A stretch of 9,734 nt of DNA from a virus (taxonomy: Duplodnaviria > Heunggongvirae > Uroviricota > Caudoviricetes), in IMG/VR virus record IMGVR_UViG_2681813004_000016, positions 1 through 9,734 of that record; one strand, written 5' to 3'. Below, in pieces: positions 1 through 7,220 of the stretch. Every line of letters begins with the position of its first letter. Position 1 is the first letter of the stretch. Under the pieces are notes generated by a model. That model ran no database searches, had not been told where the DNA came from, and was given only the letters and a program-made list of their open reading frames with translations. The position numbers and the translations under genes are program-made.

Positions 1-613
<613 letters not shown>

Positions 614-810
614 GCAGAAACTCCGTAATGAAGATGAAAAGCGCTCATAACACATCTGTCGGCCAGAAGGCGCGCCTCTGAGTTATCCTACGGACATACC
701 GGGAACAGTGTAATTTCCCGGCAGGAGCGAAAAATTTGAAAGGCGCATCTTACTCTTTTCGCTTTCAAAAAAAGAGTGGTCTTCGCGTTAACACACCGCC
801 CTGAGATGAA

Positions 811-1284
811 TTAGTGATGTTTTGGCTGCACCGCAACATACATTTCGATATCCCAGTACCCATCTTCCGCGCCATTGTTCAAGTAAACCTCGAAGCAGGG
901 CTTTGGTAACATTTCATAAGCACTGTCCTGCAAGAGGCTATTAAAGAACTGATACCAGGGTTTAGCAAAATCATCACCGACTACACGAGCCACCGCCACC
1001 GCATACTGACCACCTAAAATTTCTGTCAGAATGACGCCCTCACTGTTGTCGGGGAGCGTAAAGTTATTCGGCACCGTCACGACGGTGTCGCAGCGTAATT
1101 TTTCGGCGGGTGTTTCATCTGGATTGTCGTAATAGACAGCAACCCACTCCTTCGGCACAATATTTTTGTTATCTACCCACATCATCAACTGCTCAAAGCC
1201 TTTCTTTACCGTCTGTTCCCACGGGCCAACAAGATGGAAACCTGCAACGGTACGTTTATCTTCCTGCTTAATCTCGTAGTTCAT
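811..1284 (-). CDS. sbmC: DNA gyrase inhibitor SbmC (GyrI)
   Basis: 157-aa [27 protein letters not shown]...YVAVQPKHH matches E. coli SbmC in length and sequence as recalled. ATG start with GGAGG RBS; synteny yeeA-sbmC-dacD as in E. coli K-12. Confidence 0.95.
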
Positions 1285-1300
1285 GACGCCTCCACTAACA

Positions 1301-1316
1301 CTGTTTTTATATACAG
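1301..1316. promoter_or_regulatory. LexA (SOS) box CTGT-N8-ACAG immediately upstream of sbmC
   Basis: Sequence caCTGTttttatatACAGta at 1299-1318 fits the LexA consensus TACTGTATATATATACAGTA. It lies about 17 nt upstream of the sbmC start codon. sbmC is a known SOS-inducible gene. Confidence 0.7.
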
Positions 1317-1402
1317 TATAGTTGCAATATTAAAACCACAAGGAATGAGTGTTGATTATGCGAGCAGACTCGCACTCCTGCCAGTCTGCTGCAAAAGAAA
1401 GG

Positions 1403-2569
1403 TCAGGCCTTATGGTGGAAATAATCACTCAGGCGGGAAAACATGCTGCCTTCCCCGACAGATTCCAGGGTAACCAGCGGCCAGTGCGCCACCTGTTTAT
1501 CACGGTCGTAAAGTTCAATTTCCCCTACCCGCTGATGGGCGCTAATTGGCGCGGTGAGTTCTTTACCATCAAGGGTATATTTGGCTTTGATATGTGGAAT
1601 TTCGGCTTTCGGTAGCACCATCCAGAACTCTTGTTCCGTTCCCAGAGCGATATTTTCTTTATCACCATACCAGATGCGTTCCGTACCGACCTTTTTCCCA
1701 CGGTGCAAAATTTGCACCGTAGTAAAGTTTTGTTGCCCCCAACGCAGTAATTTTCTTGCCTCTTCCTCACGACCTTTTGCACTGTCAGCACCCATTACCA
1801 CTGCAATGAGGCGACGCTGCCCGTCTACAGCCGAAGCAATGAGATTAAACCCAGCACCAGAAGTATGACCCGTTTTCAGGCCGTCAACATTCATGGTTTT
1901 ATCCCACAATAACCCGTTACGGTTTTGCTGGGTGATACCGTTCCAGGTGAGGCTTTTCTCACTGTACATATGATAAAACTCGGGCTCGCCGTGGATGATA
2001 GCGCGAGAAAGCACAGCTAAATCATAAGCCGAGCTATGCTGGCCAGGTGCATCCAGACCATGCACTGTTTCAAAATGCGTATCCTTGAGATGCAGCTTCT
2101 CGGCATAGTTGTTCATCATTTCAACAAACTGCCGTTGCCCACCGGCAATATAGTCAGCCAGTGCAACACAAGCGTCATTTCCGGAATCCACAATTAAACC
2201 ACGGCTTAAATCACGTACCGATACGCGATCGCCCTCTTTCAAAAACATCAGTGAAGAACCGACAAACACCGGATTATCTTTCGCCCACGCATCACGCCCC
2301 ACGGTGACAATATCGTCCGGCGTAATGCGATGACTATCGATAGCGCGATCCACGACATAGCCCGTCATCAGCTTTGTCAGGCTGGCGGGATTGCGCTGTT
2401 GATGCTCATTACCCGCGGTGAGAATCTGACCGGTAGTGTAATCCATCAATACCCAGGACCCGGCATGAATCTCTGGAGGTTGAGGTGAAAAAGGGATGTT
2501 TTCCGCCGCAAAACCAGACGATAAATTAAAAACGAACAAAGAAGCAGCAATAATAAGACGGCGTTTCAA
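1403..2569 (-). CDS. dacD: D-alanyl-D-alanine carboxypeptidase DacD (PBP6b)
   Basis: ORF translation ...RRLIIAASLFVFNLSSGFAAENIPFSPQPP... with SxxK (ASLTK), SGN and KTG motifs, ending DYFHHKA. Matches E. coli DacD. The ORF track starts at TTG 2573-2575 (390 aa); the second TTG at 2567-2569 has GAGG 6-7 nt upstream and gives the 388-aa length recalled for DacD, so I call 2569 as the start. Confidence 0.93.
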   Translation of the reverse strand: MKRRLIIAASLFVFNLSSGFAAENIPFSPQPPEIHAGSWVLMDYTTGQILTAGNEHQQRNPASLTKLMTGYVVDRAIDSHRITPDDIVTVGRDAWAKDNPVFVGSSLMFLKEGDRVSVRDLSRGLIVDSGNDACVALADYIAGGQRQFVEMMNNYAEKLHLKDTHFETVHGLDAPGQHSSAYDLAVLSRAIIHGEPEFYHMYSEKSLTWNGITQQNRNGLLWDKTMNVDGLKTGHTSGAGFNLIASAVDGQRRLIAVVMGADSAKGREEEARKLLRWGQQNFTTVQILHRGKKVGTERIWYGDKENIALGTEQEFWMVLPKAEIPHIKAKYTLDGKELTAPISAHQRVGEIELYDRDKQVAHWPLVTLESVGEGSMFSRLSDYFHHKA

Positions 2570-2777
2570 CAGCAAACCCTCAGGTGTTTCAAATAGCTGT
2601 TCTTTTTACGGAAATACTTATGAACTGGCTGGAATAAAGTGCAAGAAAATGTGACTACTATCTCATTTTTATCTGACATGAACTGTTGCCACTCGCTGCC
2701 AAATTGTCGCGCTAAAGCTGATTAGCACGGTGATATTTGATACTCTGGCAGACAGCAGAAATAACGGATTTAACCTA

Positions 2778-2840
2778 ATGATGAATGACGGTAAGCAACA
2801 ATCTACCTTTTTGTTTCACGATTACGCGCAACACCCCTGA
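2778..2840 (+). pseudogene. sbcB: Exonuclease I (sbcB) 5' remnant: first 16 native codons, then foreign sequence and stop
   Basis: ATG ATG AAT GAC GGT AAG CAA CAA TCT ACC TTT TTG TTT CAC GAT TAC translates MMNDGKQQSTFLFHDY, the SbcB N-terminus as recalled (native continues ETFGTHPALDRP...). Here it continues AQHP then TGA at 2838-2840. Divergent from dacD as in K-12. Homology breaks at about 2825/2826. Confidence 0.75.
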
Positions 2841-2912
2841 GAACCGCCATGAACAAGGGTTTCATGATTTGTGATTTTAGTTTGGTACGCAATTTGGTAC
2901 ACAACACAATTT

Positions 2913-3158
2913 TCACTTCAGCGGGTAGTCATCAAACTCACCATAACGAGCAGCGTTAATGATGATTGGTTGCGAAACAGGAACGTGAGAACCGTCTTCG
3001 TTCTCTACATAAACCTGAATCTGGTTTTCAGGATTTACCGGGTCAGTGTCAATTTTTCCGATATAAATTTTGCCATTGGCTACGGCTTTAAAAGAACGCG
3101 CCATAGTGAAGAGTTGCGAAGGCATGCTTACCACAACATTGGCTGTAATGTCTGTCAT
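2913..3158 (-). pseudogene. P22-type tailspike (gp9) N-terminal head-binding-domain fragment, truncated after about 70 codons
   Basis: [70 protein letters not shown] matches the P22 tailspike N-terminus as recalled ([74 protein letters not shown]...). It then diverges to [11 protein letters not shown] and stops. Lies downstream of ant on the same strand, as in P22. Confidence 0.7.
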
Positions 3159-3216
3159 TTAATTTGCTCCAGATACAAGGAATCGCCGCAGCATGGCTAC
3201 GGTGAATTTTGGGCAT

Positions 3217-3239
3217 AAAAAAACCCAGCCGAAGCTGGG
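3217..3239 (-). terminator. Rho-independent terminator downstream of ant
   Basis: Plus strand reads aaaaaaa-CCCAGC-cgaa-GCTGGG; on the minus strand this is a GC stem with a 4-nt loop followed by UUUUUUU, sitting 20 nt after the ant stop codon. Confidence 0.75.
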
Positions 3240-3258
3240 TCGTTGCGTTGGTTATCTG

Positions 3259-4173
3259 TCAGTAGTTATGTACTGAAGGAGGTAATTCTTTATTCTTAAG
3301 TCTCATCCATGCGGAAAGATTCGTTGGTCCGTCTGGCTCATTGATATCAACATCTCGTGTGTGGTTTATTAAAACGTCTCTCGCCATTCCAATAACATAC
3401 GAGAACTCATGACCGTAGTCGTAGCATCTGCAGGAATAGTTCGATTGAATTTGCTTTAGCGCCGGATACAGTTCGCGGAATAATGCCTGTGAGCGGTTGG
3501 CATAATCCCATAACCATACAAGACTGTCTGTTTCTTTTGCGGAAAGCCCGTTGAGCTTCTTCTCTTGTTTGCCGATTAACTCTCCTTCAAGCGGAACGCG
3601 AGCAGCAAGTGACAGAGCTTCGGTAAACTGCTCCTCGCTGATTTCTTTATATGAACACCCAAAATGAGATTTCAGTGACGACCACATGGTGATCATCGCC
3701 TTCGCCTGTTTTTCTTTTGGCAGAGACTGACCGCGACTCATGACGAGTTGTTTAATGGCTTCCTGCTGCTCTTTGGTTATTTTGCCCGGCAACGCCTTTT
3801 TAGCTTTCGGTGTATTTCCGTAAGACCCCGTTTTACGAATGGATGGCAAAACTTCAGCTGTCACCCATTTGCGGAATTTGTGCGGGACTGAACCTTTATT
3901 GACGGCATCACGGCAGCGCAGAACCAATGTATACATACCTGATTCGCTCACAATGCTTAAATTCTGCTCACCGCCAAGGGTGTAACTTAAAGTTACTCCC
4001 TTCTCATCGTCATCAAGTGCAGTAAGCGCCTTGCGTGAGTTAGTCAGAGTTAAAGCATCACAAACATCTTTTGCTACAAACCACGGCGCACCGCACTTGT
4101 TGATGACGCGGATTTCACTGTCGCCGAATTTGAAGATGGTGAAATCGTTTTGTGCCTTTGCTATACTTTTCAT
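3259..4173 (-). CDS. ant: Phage antirepressor Ant (Bro-N/KilA-N-like N-terminal domain)
   Basis: 304-aa ORF. N-terminus [30 protein letters not shown] is a typical Bro-N-type antirepressor motif. Sits immediately downstream of an Arc-like gene and opposite a divergent Mnt-like gene, the P22 immI arrangement. Confidence 0.85.
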
Positions 4174-4246
4174 GTCAATATTTCCCGATCAGATTTGTTG
4201 ATGTAGAAGCCTCGCCAGTTCCCGCTGTCGGGGCTTCGTTATTTTT
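4174..4246 (+). ncRNA. Predicted sar-like antisense RNA covering the ant RBS and start region
   Basis: Candidate plus-strand promoter inside the ant 5' codons: -35 GTGAAA 4139-4144, 17-nt spacer, -10 TATACT 4162-4167, putting the start at about 4174. Plus-strand hairpin GAAGCC(4206-4211)/GGCTTC(4232-4237) with inner CCCG/CGGG stem, followed by TTATTTTT (4239-4246). Predicted RNA is about 70 nt and antisense to the ant RBS, as described for P22 sar. Confidence 0.4.
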
Positions 4247-4406
4247 AGAGAGCATTCCGCATTTTCTCCCGGTACTTCAACCACCAAGCAAGTCCCTGAA
4301 CCAACACTGAGTTTTCTGACATCCCCTCTTCCTTAGCGATGCGTTTCACCTCCTCCTTAAAACGGTACGGATACCGAAGAGTTGTCTTCACTTCATTCTT
4401 TTCCAT
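4245..4406 (-). CDS. arc: Arc-like ribbon-helix-helix repressor (53 aa)
   Basis: Not in the ORF track (under 60 aa). Minus strand ATG 4404-4406 to TAA 4245-4247 translates MEKNEVKTTLRYPYRFKEEVKRIAKEEGMSENSVLVQGLAWWLKYREKMRNAL. Same size and RHH pattern as P22 Arc (recalled ...PQFNLRWPREVLDLVRKVAEENGRSVNSEIYQRVMESF...). AGGAG RBS 7 nt upstream; directly upstream of ant. Confidence 0.7.
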   Translation of the reverse strand: MEKNEVKTTLRYPYRFKEEVKRIAKEEGMSENSVLVQGLAWWLKYREKMRNAL

Positions 4407-4427
4407 TGATCACTCCTTTTTACGTAA

Positions 4428-4489
4428 TGGCATTATGCCTTGAAAGCAATATGCCATCATTGAATATAAATAGCAATATGCCATCATTG
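4428..4489. promoter_or_regulatory. immI operator/promoter region: 11-bp palindrome plus two perfect 18-bp direct repeats between divergent arc-like and mnt-like genes
   Basis: Palindrome GGCATtATGCC at 4429-4439. Direct repeats AGCAATATGCCATCATTG at 4445-4462 and 4472-4489, 27 bp apart. The 7-mer ATGCCAT (reverse complement ATGGCAT) occurs three times. A candidate plus-strand promoter overlaps them (-35 TTGAAA 4440-4445, -10 TATAAA 4465-4470). Confidence 0.45.
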
Positions 4490-4508
4490 TTTTTTTTGAG
4501 GTGATGTT

Positions 4509-4829
4509 ATGGCTGAAAAGCAGGTTAAAGATTACGAAAAGTTTGTTGTGCGTTTCCCTGACGGGATGAGGGACGCGATTGCGGAGAGAGCCAAACGAAA
4601 CGGGCGCTCTATGAACTCAGAGATTGTGCAGATACTGGAAGATGCCTTGAATGCAGAAAATACTCTTGGGGAAATAGCAGACAAAATCAACAGCGTCTCG
4701 GTTCCGCTAAATGTTGATGCGCTAGTTCAACTTCAAGCCCAGGTTATCGCCATGCAAAAAGAAATACAGGAAAAGTTCAGAGAGCAGAACGAAAAGTTGA
4801 GAGAACTACTAAATAAAAAACCCACCTGA
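4509..4829 (+). CDS. mnt: Mnt-like ribbon-helix-helix repressor with C-terminal coiled coil (106 aa)
   Basis: N-terminus MAEKQVKDYEKFVVRFPDGMRDAIAERAKRNGRSMNSEIVQILEDAL carries the Arc/Mnt signature NGRSMNSE; C-terminal half is heptad-rich. GAGGTGA RBS upstream of ATG 4509. Divergent from arc-ant. Confidence 0.7.
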   Translation: MAEKQVKDYEKFVVRFPDGMRDAIAERAKRNGRSMNSEIVQILEDALNAENTLGEIADKINSVSVPLNVDALVQLQAQVIAMQKEIQEKFREQNEKLRELLNKKPT

Positions 4830-4836
4830 CGGTGGG
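4811..4836 (-). terminator. Rho-independent terminator downstream of tail gene L (overlaps the 3' end of the mnt-like gene)
   Basis: Plus strand aaataaaaaa-CCCACC-tgac-GGTGGG; on the minus strand the stem is followed by UUUUUUAUUU, 10 nt after the L stop codon (4846-4848). The mnt-like stop TGA (4827-4829) lies in the hairpin loop. Confidence 0.6.
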
Positions 4837-4845
4837 CATAATCCA

Positions 4846-5544
4846 TTACTGCGAAAGTTTGTTAATGGAAAGGAAGCCGCCAAAGTTGCCGACGTTATTG
4901 CGAAACTTACAGCCACTCAGGCATTTGCTGCATTTATCCTTCGTGATATCGGACGTTGGCTGGTCATATTCATCCGCGACAGCCGGACCGTGATAACCGC
5001 ACTCATCGCCGCGATAGGTCCAGGTGCAGGTGTTGGCCAGCATGATACGTCCCGGAAAAACAGCGCCATCTGTTTCCGTCGGCGTGGACAGTACAAAGGA
5101 GGCACTCACCGCGCTCAGTTCGCTGCACTGCTCGATGCGCCAGCGGCTGATCACCTCCTGCTCCGGATCGGCGTCACTGTTTCCGTTAACGAAGTTCACC
5201 GCATCCAGAAAACGGGCGTAAACCTTACGCCGGACCACCGTTCCGCCGACCAGACTCTGCATATCTTCCACCATACCGGTGACCATGCCGTGCAGGTTAG
5301 AAACCGTCAGTGTCGGACGGGCAGCACTGCCCTTGCCGTTCAGTTCAAATCCCGTCCCCTGAATGGGATACGCCTGATACTGTCGCCCCTGCCAGGTGAC
5401 CGGCTCACCTTTTTCGTTCTGCTCATTACAGAAAAAATAACGTTCTCCACCGACCTCTGTCAGGTCGATTTCCCAGAGCACCACGCTGGCAGACTGCTCC
5501 GCACGGGTGCATTCATTCAGTGTTTCCTGCCGGATATCCTGCAT
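4846..5544 (-). CDS. L: Lambda-type minor tail protein L
   Basis: 232-aa ORF MQDIRQETLNECTRAEQSASVVLWEIDLTEVGGERYFFCNEQNEKGEPVTWQGRQYQ...FGGFLSINKLSQ matches phage lambda gpL in sequence and length as recalled. Its start overlaps the M stop (ATGA). Confidence 0.95.
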   Translation of the reverse strand: MQDIRQETLNECTRAEQSASVVLWEIDLTEVGGERYFFCNEQNEKGEPVTWQGRQYQAYPIQGTGFELNGKGSAARPTLTVSNLHGMVTGMVEDMQSLVGGTVVRRKVYARFLDAVNFVNGNSDADPEQEVISRWRIEQCSELSAVSASFVLSTPTETDGAVFPGRIMLANTCTWTYRGDECGYHGPAVADEYDQPTSDITKDKCSKCLSGCKFRNNVGNFGGFLSINKLSQ

Positions 5545-5873
5545 CAGTTCACCACCTGTTTAAACTCTGCGCTGAACTCAACACGCAACATACTGACCTG
5601 CGACGACCATTTTGCGCAGGTCACCTTTATCTGCCTGTAACCATAAGGCGGCGTCCACAGAAAGGCCTTCCAGCCCCCGTGCTCAGCCAGAAACGACTCC
5701 AGCGCCGTGGCCTCCTCACGGGAGACAGACAGCGTCACGCTGTACGTTTTCAGGTCAGCGTTCAGCCCGGCAGGCGCACGCTGGGAATAGCCATCACCAA
5801 AGCGCACCTCCCTGACGGAAGGGGCCGATGTCACATCCATACCGGGTTTCACTTTCCAGCGGAAGGTTTTCAT
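5544..5873 (-). CDS. M: Lambda-type minor tail protein M
   Basis: 109-aa ORF MKTFRWKVKPGMDV...WTPPYGYRQIKVTCAKWSSQVSMLRVEFSAEFKQVVN matches lambda gpM as recalled; H-M-L order and overlaps as in lambda. Confidence 0.95.
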   Translation of the reverse strand: MKTFRWKVKPGMDVTSAPSVREVRFGDGYSQRAPAGLNADLKTYSVTLSVSREEATALESFLAEHGGWKAFLWTPPYGYRQIKVTCAKWSSQVSMLRVEFSAEFKQVVN

Positions 5874-6247
5874 CGTCCACCTCCGGAGAACAGGCCACCA
5901 TCACGCATCTGTGTCTGAATTTCATCACGGGCACCCTTGCGGGCCATGTCATACACCGCCTTCAGAGCAGCCGGACCTATCTGCCCGTTCGTGCCGTCGT
6001 TGTTAATCACCACATGGTTATTCTGCTCAAACGTCCCGGACGCCTGCGACCGGCTGTCTGCCATGCTGCCCGGTGTACCGACATAACCGCCGGTGGCATA
6101 GCCGCGCATCAGCCGGTAAAGATTCCCCACGCCAATCCGGCTGGTTGCCTCCTTCGTGAAGACAAACTCACCACGGTGAACAATCCCCGCTGGCTCATAT
6201 TTGCCGCCGGTTCCCGTAAATCCTCCGGTTGCAAAATGGAATTTCGC
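5870..6247 (-). pseudogene. H: Tape-measure protein H, C-terminal fragment (about 125 codons), 5'-truncated at the IS903 junction
   Basis: C-terminal translation ...GGFTGTGGKYEPAGIVHRGEFVFTKEATSRIGVGNLYRLMRGYATGGYVGTPG...MRDGGLFSGGGR matches the lambda gpH C-terminus as recalled. Upstream of about 6247 the frame reads IS903-derived sequence, so the first about 35 residues of the 160-aa track ORF are not H. Confidence 0.85.
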
Positions 6248-6779
6248 CGCAGACAACTTCATGTGTGTTGCTGTCAACAGCAAGATGCAACTTTCGCCAG
6301 ATACGACGGCGCTCTTTGCCGTGCTTTCTGACTTTCCATTCGCCTTCACCAAAGACCTTCAGCCCGGTGGAATCAATCACCAGGTGTGCGATTTCACCCC
6401 GGGTGGACGTTTTGAAACTGACATTAACCGACTTTGCCCGCTTACTGACACTGGTGTAATCCGGGCAGCGCAACGGAACGTTCATCAGGGCAAAAATGGA
6501 ATCAATAAAACCCTGCGCAGCCCGCAGGGTCAGCCGGAATACGCGTTTAATCACCAGAACGGTGGTGATGGCGAGATCAGAATAGCGCTGGGGCCTTCCT
6601 CGTGATGAAGGCGTTGCCGACTCATACCAGGCCTGAATCGCCTCATCATCCAGCCAGAAAGTGAGGGAGCCACGGTTGATGAGAGCTTTGTTGTAGGTGG
6701 ACCAGTTGGTGATTCTGAACTTTTGCTTTGCCACGGAATGGTCTGTGTTGTCGGGAGGATGCGTGATCTGATCCTTCAA
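6248..6779 (-). pseudogene. IS903-family transposase, N-terminal about 177 codons, 3'-truncated (track ORF 6195-6779 reads on into H-derived DNA)
   Basis: Transposase similarity runs from the TTG start at 6777-6779 to ...LAVDSNTHEVVC. The last 17 residues of the track ORF (GEIPFCNRRIYGNRRQI) are out-of-frame readthrough of tape-measure DNA. Confidence 0.85.
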
Positions 6780-6811
6780 CTCAGCAAAAGTTCGATTTAT
6801 TCAACAAAGCC
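6248..6811 (-). mobile_element. Truncated IS903-family insertion sequence (IS5 family): left inverted repeat plus 5' part of the transposase gene only
   Basis: Plus-strand 6793-6811 cgatttattcaacaaagcc is the reverse complement of the IS903 terminal inverted repeat GGCTTTGTTGAATAAATCG as recalled. The adjacent ORF encodes ...KQKFRITNWSTYNKALINRGSLTFWLDDEAIQAWYESATPSSRGRPQRYSDLAITTV..., the IS903/IS102 transposase N-terminus. Homology ends at about 6248, where lambda H sequence begins, so only about 564 bp of a roughly 1 kb IS remain. Confidence 0.9.
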
Positions 6812-7220
6812 CCTTAGAGCTAATTTCAGAACCACCAACACCCTCAATATAGTTTGATCTCCATGGTGACTCTTCGTGTGTCATGTTCCTCAGTTTCCAG
6901 GCAGAAAATTGCCCAAAAACATCCCAGACTTCTTCTAATAACTCTAACTGTTCTTCGCTGAATTTTTCAGCATCAAAAGACTCTGGAGAAGGGATAGCGC
7001 CATTACCATATTGTTTATAACGGCGATAAAGCTCAGGGACAACAGGGCCATGCATCCAAGCTTCCATCTTATTCTGAAAAAGAGGCTCGCCAAGCAACGC
7101 CAATGAAAAACCCTGAGCATAGTAAACAAGCTTTTGTAATTTTAAATTAGAGATTGTGTCACCGCTATCCTCGTCACACCGCGACAGGAAGTAGTCGGCG
7201 ACATCAAAACAAGTAAGCAT
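6801..7220 (-). CDS. Panacea / SocA-like (DUF4065) antitoxin-domain protein, 3' end clipped by the IS903 insertion
   Basis: MLTCFDVADYFLSRCDEDSGDTISNLKLQKLVYYAQGFSLALLGEPLFQNKMEAWMHGPVVPELYRRYKQYG... fits the SocA/Panacea pattern (hLKLQKLLYhAQGh...GEPLh...hEAWhHGPVhP.LY). Likely start is ATG 7218-7220 (GGAGG 7 nt upstream); the track used GTG at 7226. The last two codons and the stop (6801-6809) are IS903 sequence, so the native C-terminus is lost. Confidence 0.6.
   Translation of the reverse strand: MLTCFDVADYFLSRCDEDSGDTISNLKLQKLVYYAQGFSLALLGEPLFQNKMEAWMHGPVVPELYRRYKQYGNGAIPSPESFDAEKFSEEQLELLEEVWDVFGQFSAWKLRNMTHEESPWRSNYIEGVGGSEISSKGLC

Follow-up and report, generated by a model that had tools for sequence, protein, structure and literature searches.

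Does the short spacer between the arc-like and ant genes of an E. coli prophage locus encode a small antisense RNA equivalent to sar of phage P22? The locus lies within a 9,734-nt stretch of DNA (positions 1 to 9,734 of IMG/VR record IMGVR_UViG_2681813004_000016), which was analysed as a whole and is referred to below as the window; all window coordinates are counted from its first base. An earlier note, made from the letters of the window, had predicted such an RNA on the plus strand, opposite the ribosome-binding site (RBS) of ant. Our analysis leads to the same reading. With a probability of roughly 0.86, positions 4174-4246 of the plus strand represent a diverged sar homologue within an mnt/arc/ant (immI) cassette, which would block translation of ant by pairing with its RBS.

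The immI-type cassette and its prophage setting

The window is a mosaic, partly degraded E. coli prophage located next to dacD. Its parts are arranged as follows.

811-2575: host genes sbmC and dacD
2913-3158: truncated head-binding fragment of a P22-type tailspike, next to dacD and after ant, as in P22
3259-4829: the immI cassette
4846-5873: lambda-type tail genes L and M, joined to the other side of the cassette
6195-6779: fragment of a DDE transposase
6801-7226: Panacea-domain gene
8386-9033: NleG effector gene
9243-9644: C-terminus of a tail fibre

The following features were recognised in and immediately beside the cassette.

3222-3241, minus strand: terminator-like hairpin with a T-run after the ant stop codon (found by scan), at the position of the annotated P22 ant terminator (16012-16035)
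3259-4173, minus strand: ant, an antirepressor of 304 aa (Pfam Bro-N and P22_AR_C)
4245-4406, minus strand: arc-like gene upstream of ant, 53 aa, ribbon-helix-helix (RHH) protein (Pfam, BLASTP and PDB)
4427-4489: candidate operators in the mnt-arc intergenic region 4407-4508 (repeat search)
4509-4829, plus strand: mnt-like divergent repressor of 106 aa, Arc/RHH (Pfam Arc, E = 1.6e-19)

The antirepressor is readily recognised by its C-terminal part, which matches Pfam P22_AR_C (E = 2.2e-26) and is, over 168 aa, 65% identical to P22 Ant, whereas the N-terminus is of the Bro-N type and unrelated to that of P22 Ant. The arc-like protein is the least clear of the three. It scores 17.5 bits with the Pfam Arc profile, under the 20.4 cut-off, and shares 38% identity with P22 Arc over 29 aa (BLASTP E = 3e-5); both proteins are 53 aa long, and chains of the Arc repressor are its closest matches in the PDB (E = 0.03-0.4). 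The mnt-like protein is 47% identical to the N-terminus of P22 Mnt over 43 aa. The identity of the window proteins to P22 Arc (~38%) and Mnt (~47%) extends over the RHH core only. The Arc-like assignment is weak but consistent, and since the mnt-like gene is divergent from the arc-like gene, which is followed by ant, all with these similarities to P22, the locus is, judged by gene order and protein similarity, an immI-type cassette.

The intergenic region between the mnt-like and arc-like genes contains three copies of the motif ATGGCAT(A/T)(A/T)TGC, one at 4427-4438 and two inverted ones within the repeats at 4445-4462 and 4472-4489. The latter are perfect 18-nt direct repeats (AGCAATATGCCATCATTG) spaced 27 nt apart, with ATGGCATTATGC as the inverted copy of the core. 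Given the position of Oarc and Omnt in P22, the motifs within 4427-4489 are likely to be operators for the Arc-like and Mnt-like repressors. A search of 4407-4508 for the promoters Pant and Pmnt yielded only 8/12 matches to the sigma-70 consensus, and none was assigned. A further strong terminator-like hairpin is found on the minus strand at 4820-4837, right after tail gene L, where it extends into the 3' end of the mnt-like gene, which is encoded on the opposite strand; together with the hairpin at 3222-3241 on the same strand it brackets the cassette.

The mnt/arc/sar/ant cassette occurs in three unrelated virion-gene contexts (11360-12930 of locus L001, 2274-3670 of L083 and 14519-15993 of L002). 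It precedes the tailspike in P22-like phages, is flanked by the lambda-type tail genes L and K in a lambdoid prophage of E. coli PK8241, and lies among baseplate and tail genes of Edwardsiella phage GF-2, where hypothetical gp24 and gp20 are its neighbours and the 'lytic tail protein' gp18 follows further on. The cassette, its antisense RNA gene intact, thus moves as one unit between phage backbones that are unrelated. In the one RefSeq E. coli record examined (L001), the position of sar carries no annotated RNA feature. The annotated ant/Rha genes of phages GF-2 (2274-3300 of L083), PhiR5_1 (848-1745 of L084) and Edno5 (1017-1800 of L086) have starts that reach or cross the sar-like region, so that these genes overlap or nearly touch the arc-like gene; a conserved ATG abutting the sar 5' end lies further downstream, and the starts in the three records are probably mis-called.

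A mosaic and partly degraded prophage is a setting in which the cassette may be a passenger of a decaying element and may no longer matter biologically. The truncated tailspike fragment by dacD (2913-3158), the transposase fragment (6195-6779) and the joining of lambda-type tail genes to a P22-type ant moron would all be expected if the element were a genuine descendant of sar that is now unexpressed or without regulatory effect. We regard this as improbable, since the ant (304 aa), arc-like and mnt-like reading frames are all intact, and the sequence of the element itself, discussed below with its relatives, points the same way.

Predicted promoter and RNA, and proposed mode of action

The candidate RNA and its parts, all on the plus strand, are the following.

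4139-4167, plus strand: Psar-like promoter (scan, alignment with the annotated P22 Psar, family logo)
4174-4246, plus strand: predicted sar-like antisense RNA of ~70-73 nt (folding, Rfam, alignment with P22, family models)
4174-4202, plus strand: stem-loop I, in which GUCAAUA (4174-4180) pairs with UGUUGAU (4196-4202) (folding, covariation)
4206-4246, plus strand: stem-loop II, the predicted intrinsic terminator (folding, covariation, strand comparison)

The candidate promoter GTGAAA-17-TATACT, which the earlier note had placed within the first ant codons, is indeed present at 4139-4167 of the plus strand. The consensus scan located the -35 hexamer GTGAAA at 4139-4144 and, after a 17-nt spacer, the -10 hexamer TATACT at 4162-4167. 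The -10 is of the extended type, with TG at 4159-4160, and the promoter matches the consensus at 9/12 positions. Both hexamers are contained in ant codons 2-12, and the promoter is directed away from ant. The predicted transcription start, G4174, is located 7 nt past the -10, directly beside the ant ATG (minus strand, 4173-4171). We infer, by analogy with P22, that G4174 is the 5' end of the RNA; the 3' end would fall within the U-tract, both exact ends being predictions. The spacer between the arc-like gene and ant corresponds to 4174-4244.

Folding of 4174-4246 produced two hairpins with a free energy of -26.4 kcal/mol (z = -4.9), and none of 200 shuffled sequences folded as well. The apical part of stem-loop I contains UCCC (4183-4186), the complement of the ant Shine-Dalgarno (SD) sequence GGGA (4186-4183), so that the element lies opposite the ant RBS in the P22 geometry, just as had been proposed. 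RNAfold adds weak apical helices of 2-3 bp in this stem-loop; a statistic based on an unpaired anti-SD was therefore too strict and was dropped. Stem-loop II is formed by the hairpin GAAGCC...GGGGCUUC (4206-4237), which has a 14-position stem with one internal C.U mismatch and the loop UCCC, and is followed directly on its 3' side by GUUAUUUUU at 4238-4246. This U-tract overlaps the stop codon (4245-4247) of the arc-like reading frame (4245-4406, minus strand); both the plus-strand terminator and its overlap with the arc-like stop had been described in the earlier note. Segment 4200-4246, for which the note had suggested a folding calculation, is stable as well (-20.5 kcal/mol, z = -4.4), rather than the unstable hairpin that would speak against a terminator. 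A small protein-coding gene was considered as another reading of the plus strand and rejected: the reading frame at 4152-4310 opens before the point where transcription is predicted to start, and the predicted RNA itself holds only AUG-UAG.

The known sar is a stable RNA of ~68-69 nt that represses translation of ant, in trans as well. By analogy with P22 sar, the element would act in the following way. Transcription from a constitutive sigma-70 promoter, of the extended -10 type and embedded in the first ant codons, would run away from ant and give rise to an RNA of ~70 nt whose 3' end lies at the intrinsic terminator, which extends over the arc stop codon. The 5' hairpin would present the anti-Shine-Dalgarno sequence UCCC, whereas the 3' hairpin would serve as the terminator. 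The RNA, fully complementary to the arc-ant intercistronic region, would pair with the arc-ant mRNA over the ant RBS, up to the base before the AUG. Pairing would block ant translation and thereby limit synthesis of the antirepressor. Since the minus strand lacks a U-run after the hairpin, transcripts entering from the arc-like gene are expected to continue into ant, as they do in P22. The element most likely functions in repressing translation of ant through a fully complementary RNA of ~70 nt, and we infer that the RNA is produced in the host and represses Ant.

Homology, covariation and strand of the element

Consensus matches as such carry little weight in this window. The promoter scan returned 15 sites where 13.0 +/- 3.2 are expected and the terminator scan 14 sites where 10.0 +/- 2.8 are expected, both at chance level, and the terminator scan picked up just the inner part of the 4206-4237 hairpin. 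Scan matches were consequently left out as evidence of function; as they occur with chance frequency, the significance of the element comes from homology and conservation.

At the gathering threshold, a search of the whole window against Rfam gave no match. A permissive search of 471 nt identified sar (RF00262) at 4175-4241 of the plus strand with 28.5 bits (E = 0.0011), the match being full-length (model positions 1-68) and the score short of the 43-bit gathering threshold. Matches to ctRNA_pGA1 (23.2 bits) and BcKCsr2 (12 bits) cover a generic terminator hairpin only and were discarded. The origin of the low RF00262 score is indicated by locus L073, which combines the stem-loop I of the window with a P22-type hairpin and reaches 65 bits; the shortfall of the window is therefore due to divergence of its terminator hairpin. 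Relatives with the P22-type hairpin pass the RF00262 threshold at 65-81 bits, and the gathering score misses at least two sar hairpin variants, that of the window (L004) and that of L070, which has the longer loop GGUCUAGCCACC. We treat the shortfall as a limit of seed breadth and not as evidence against homology.

Covariance models built from the family itself recovered the window. Model R1 gave 74.1 bits. With the leave-one-out model R2, built from 86 relatives from which the window and its stem-loop I twin L073 were excluded, a single match was obtained at 4173-4246 of the plus strand (71.9 bits, E = 1.3e-14), the reverse strand scoring 13.4 bits. Judged by homology and synteny, the element belongs to the sar family as a diverged member, and fails the Rfam score threshold only. 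That a promoter-like sequence and a terminator-like one lie together by chance would agree with consensus matches being as frequent as in shuffled sequence, but this is effectively refuted by the homology to P22 sar, the leave-one-out match, the synteny, and the covariation and promoter conservation described below, and we assign it a negligible probability. More distant sar-like elements, scoring 45-63 bits with the family model, were seen at loci L093, L103, L113, L125, L149, L153, L163, L171 and L195; some of these have G+C-richer flanks and differently placed -10 and start codons. The sar family may thus extend well past the P22/E. coli group.

Relatives were collected in two ways. The ant-anchored set comprised 80 viral contigs encoding Ant relatives, which were reduced to 30 unique upstream regions, the window and P22 included; the -10/ATG block, the 5' hairpin and the terminator hairpin are present directly upstream of ant in all 30. 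For the terminator-anchored set, viral contigs were scanned for the fixed bases of the hairpin with the central stem left free, yielding at least 86 unique elements and at least 33 unique hairpins. As the search pattern was derived from the window hairpin, conservation of the fixed positions in this set is there by construction, and the independent evidence for these bases is the ant-anchored set. The element, with further hairpin variants, was also found in phages GF-2, Edno5 and PhiR5_1 and in a Klebsiella prophage. Nine IMG/VR loci are identical to the window at the promoter, both stem-loops and the terminator, and such copies lie on viral contigs of 24-44 kb and in other complete genomes. 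Among 5426 complete E. coli genomes, 465 match window positions 4130-4260, and only nine records do so at >=99% identity. This base-for-base preservation argues further against a relic in a decaying prophage. Some E. coli genomes hold two or three copies of the Psar-sar segment.

Pairing within the hairpins has been maintained while the sequence changed. Among the 33 unique hairpins in the matches listed, the four free pairs are formed in 117 of 132 cells, compared with 79.8 +/- 3.6 after shuffling (none of 2000 shuffles reached the observed count), and one of them shows all four Watson-Crick types. In a MAFFT alignment of 88 unique sequences that was not fitted to the structure (A3), 92.1% of cells are paired, versus 34-46% when the partners are slid by 1-3 columns; double changes occur at 10 pairs, and none of 500 shuffles equalled the observed covariation score. 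The model-based alignment of 96 sequences (A4) gave 92.4% paired cells and 11 pairs with double changes. In stem-loop I all 7 pairs show double changes (A3/A4), and the 5'-terminal stem forms in ~48 of 50 unique sequences of stem-loop I despite their differing arms. The outer three pairs of stem I are out of register for P22-type sequences in A3, where helix 1 is 74% paired; this is partly corrected in A4.

The hairpin is situated between two co-oriented genes and forms on the minus strand too, more weakly, which would be compatible with a role in the arc-ant mRNA only, as a stabiliser, processing site or attenuator, the plus-strand promoter match being fortuitous. Comparison of the two strands makes this very improbable. 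G.U and U.G pairs account for ~250 of 1232 hairpin cells in A3, and these conserved pairs turn into A.C mismatches on the ant mRNA strand. Among the matches listed, 31 of the 33 hairpin variants are more stable on the sar strand (mean -21.6 versus -15.6 kcal/mol); the corresponding values for the window hairpin are -18.8 kcal/mol on the plus strand and -13.6 on its complement. U-rich tails are confined to the sar strand, with a mean of 4.8/9 (7/9 in the window) against 2.6/9 on the minus strand, which has no U-run. The minus-strand fold of the region is no better than those of shuffled sequences (z = -0.55). An attenuator or terminator on the minus strand was rejected on the same grounds of lacking U-run, weaker stem and z-score. 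The homologous position in P22, moreover, is occupied by an experimentally characterised RNA, sar (Liao et al. 1987 and Wu et al. 1987, as cited in PMC2629481).

The promoter provides a further point against a function restricted to the mRNA. A logo of 47 unique terminator-anchored promoters among the matches listed, anchored on the complement of the ATG, has its highest information at TTGnTAnAnT and at (G/T)TG in the -35, with 17-nt spacing. Each of the two wobble positions of ant that underlie positions 1 and 4 of the -10 holds 1.18 bits, compared with 0.22 and 0.38 bits for wobble positions outside the hexamer. Three unrelated Ant N-termini (those of the window, P22 and locus L081) share their first five codons and then diverge. 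The conserved synonymous sites under the -10 and the five shared codons are as a nucleotide-level promoter constraint predicts.

The element is clearly homologous to P22 sar. Points against the sar reading are the sub-threshold Rfam score, the 9/12 promoter, the C.U mismatch, the weak Arc similarity and the degraded state of the prophage.

The sar hairpin also marks a mosaic boundary. Similarity between loci breaks immediately on either side of the terminator hairpin (loci L003-L206; window equivalent 4206-4237). The 193 loci among the matches listed fall into 38 flank types on the ant side and 40 on the arc side, which occur in 67 combinations, with one ant type joined to 10 arc-side types, while the outer stem and the loop-closing bases are nearly invariant, also in the ant-anchored set. 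Because the outer stem is near-invariant while both flanks have been swapped freely, the hairpin could be a recombination junction or module linker. We offer this tentatively, as a possible but doubtful interpretation; if true, modules of arc type and ant type would be reassorted through the hairpin between the backbones of podo-, sipho- and myoviruses. A corollary, equally tentative, is that sar RNA from a defective prophage like the present one might find targets in trans, since stem-loop I travels with the ant type. These would be the ant mRNAs of phages with the same ant type that are co-resident or superinfect the cell.

Comparison with known antirepressor control systems

In the immI region of phages P1 and P7 (icd-ant), c4 RNA is a small RNA that limits antirepressor synthesis by RBS occlusion. 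It is processed from the transcript of its own target and acts via short complementary boxes. In contrast to sar, c4 is not a convergently transcribed, fully complementary cis-antisense RNA, and the likeness between the two is drawn from general background. No sequence relationship between c4 and the window was found; among the Rfam matches from the permissive search (471 nt), only sar stands out.

A sar-like cassette is likewise present in E. coli phage Kapi1 and in Edwardsiella phages GF-2 and Edno5. GF-2 shares the arc type of the window (89% mean column identity overall in alignment A2), and its sar region displays compensatory changes in the hairpin. Publications on phages Edno5 and Kapi1 deal with Mnt, Arc and Ant and leave sar unmentioned. 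Among the relatives of the ant moron, many IMG/VR contigs share the ant type and stem-loop I of the window, most of them keeping the P22-type hairpin. Sar is listed for phage epsilon34 (PMC2629481), and sar reads were detected during P22 infection (PMC13397905).

The closest parallel is P22 itself, with which the earlier note had suggested a comparison; the layout proved to be the same feature by feature. In the P22 GenBank record, arc occupies 14861-15022 (plus strand) and ant begins at 15091 (plus strand), with sar annotated at 15021-15090 on the minus strand. Psar (15097-15125, minus strand) is located inside the first ant codons, and the sar terminator (15021-15058, minus strand) overlaps the arc stop codon (15022). 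As in the window, the 5' end of P22 sar adjoins the ant ATG, its promoter is contained in the first ant codons and its terminator extends over the arc stop codon. In a pairwise alignment, the block TTGCTATACT.TTCATGT is identical in the two; within it, the extended -10 and three further bases precede the complement of the ant ATG, after which come the first two bases of the transcript. The two promoters correspond column by column; at the -35, GTGAAA in the window is aligned with GTGTTA in P22, the promoter of which reads GTGTTA-17-TATACT.

Both RNAs have a two-hairpin architecture with the anti-SD in the 5' hairpin. Stem-loop I is almost wholly unlike that of P22 in sequence, yet its pairing is kept and the P22 RNA folds into the same shape. 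The terminator hairpin is conserved, with GAAGCC...GUU.CCGC...GGGGCUUC common to both. From P22 to the window, 4 of the 14 stem positions differ with pairing kept (C-G to U-G, U-G to C-G, G-U to G-C and U-A to A-U), the last of these having changed on both sides, and one new mismatch is present in the window. The U-tract of the window, GUUAUUUUU, is longer than the AACUUU of P22.

The value of the present element is accordingly one of annotation: it is a sar variant missed at the Rfam gathering threshold, which a broader model would recover. Measured against the P22 paradigm it offers nothing biologically new, and is best described as an ordinary member of the known sar system, carried by an E. 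coli mosaic prophage with lambda-type tail genes instead of a P22-like phage.
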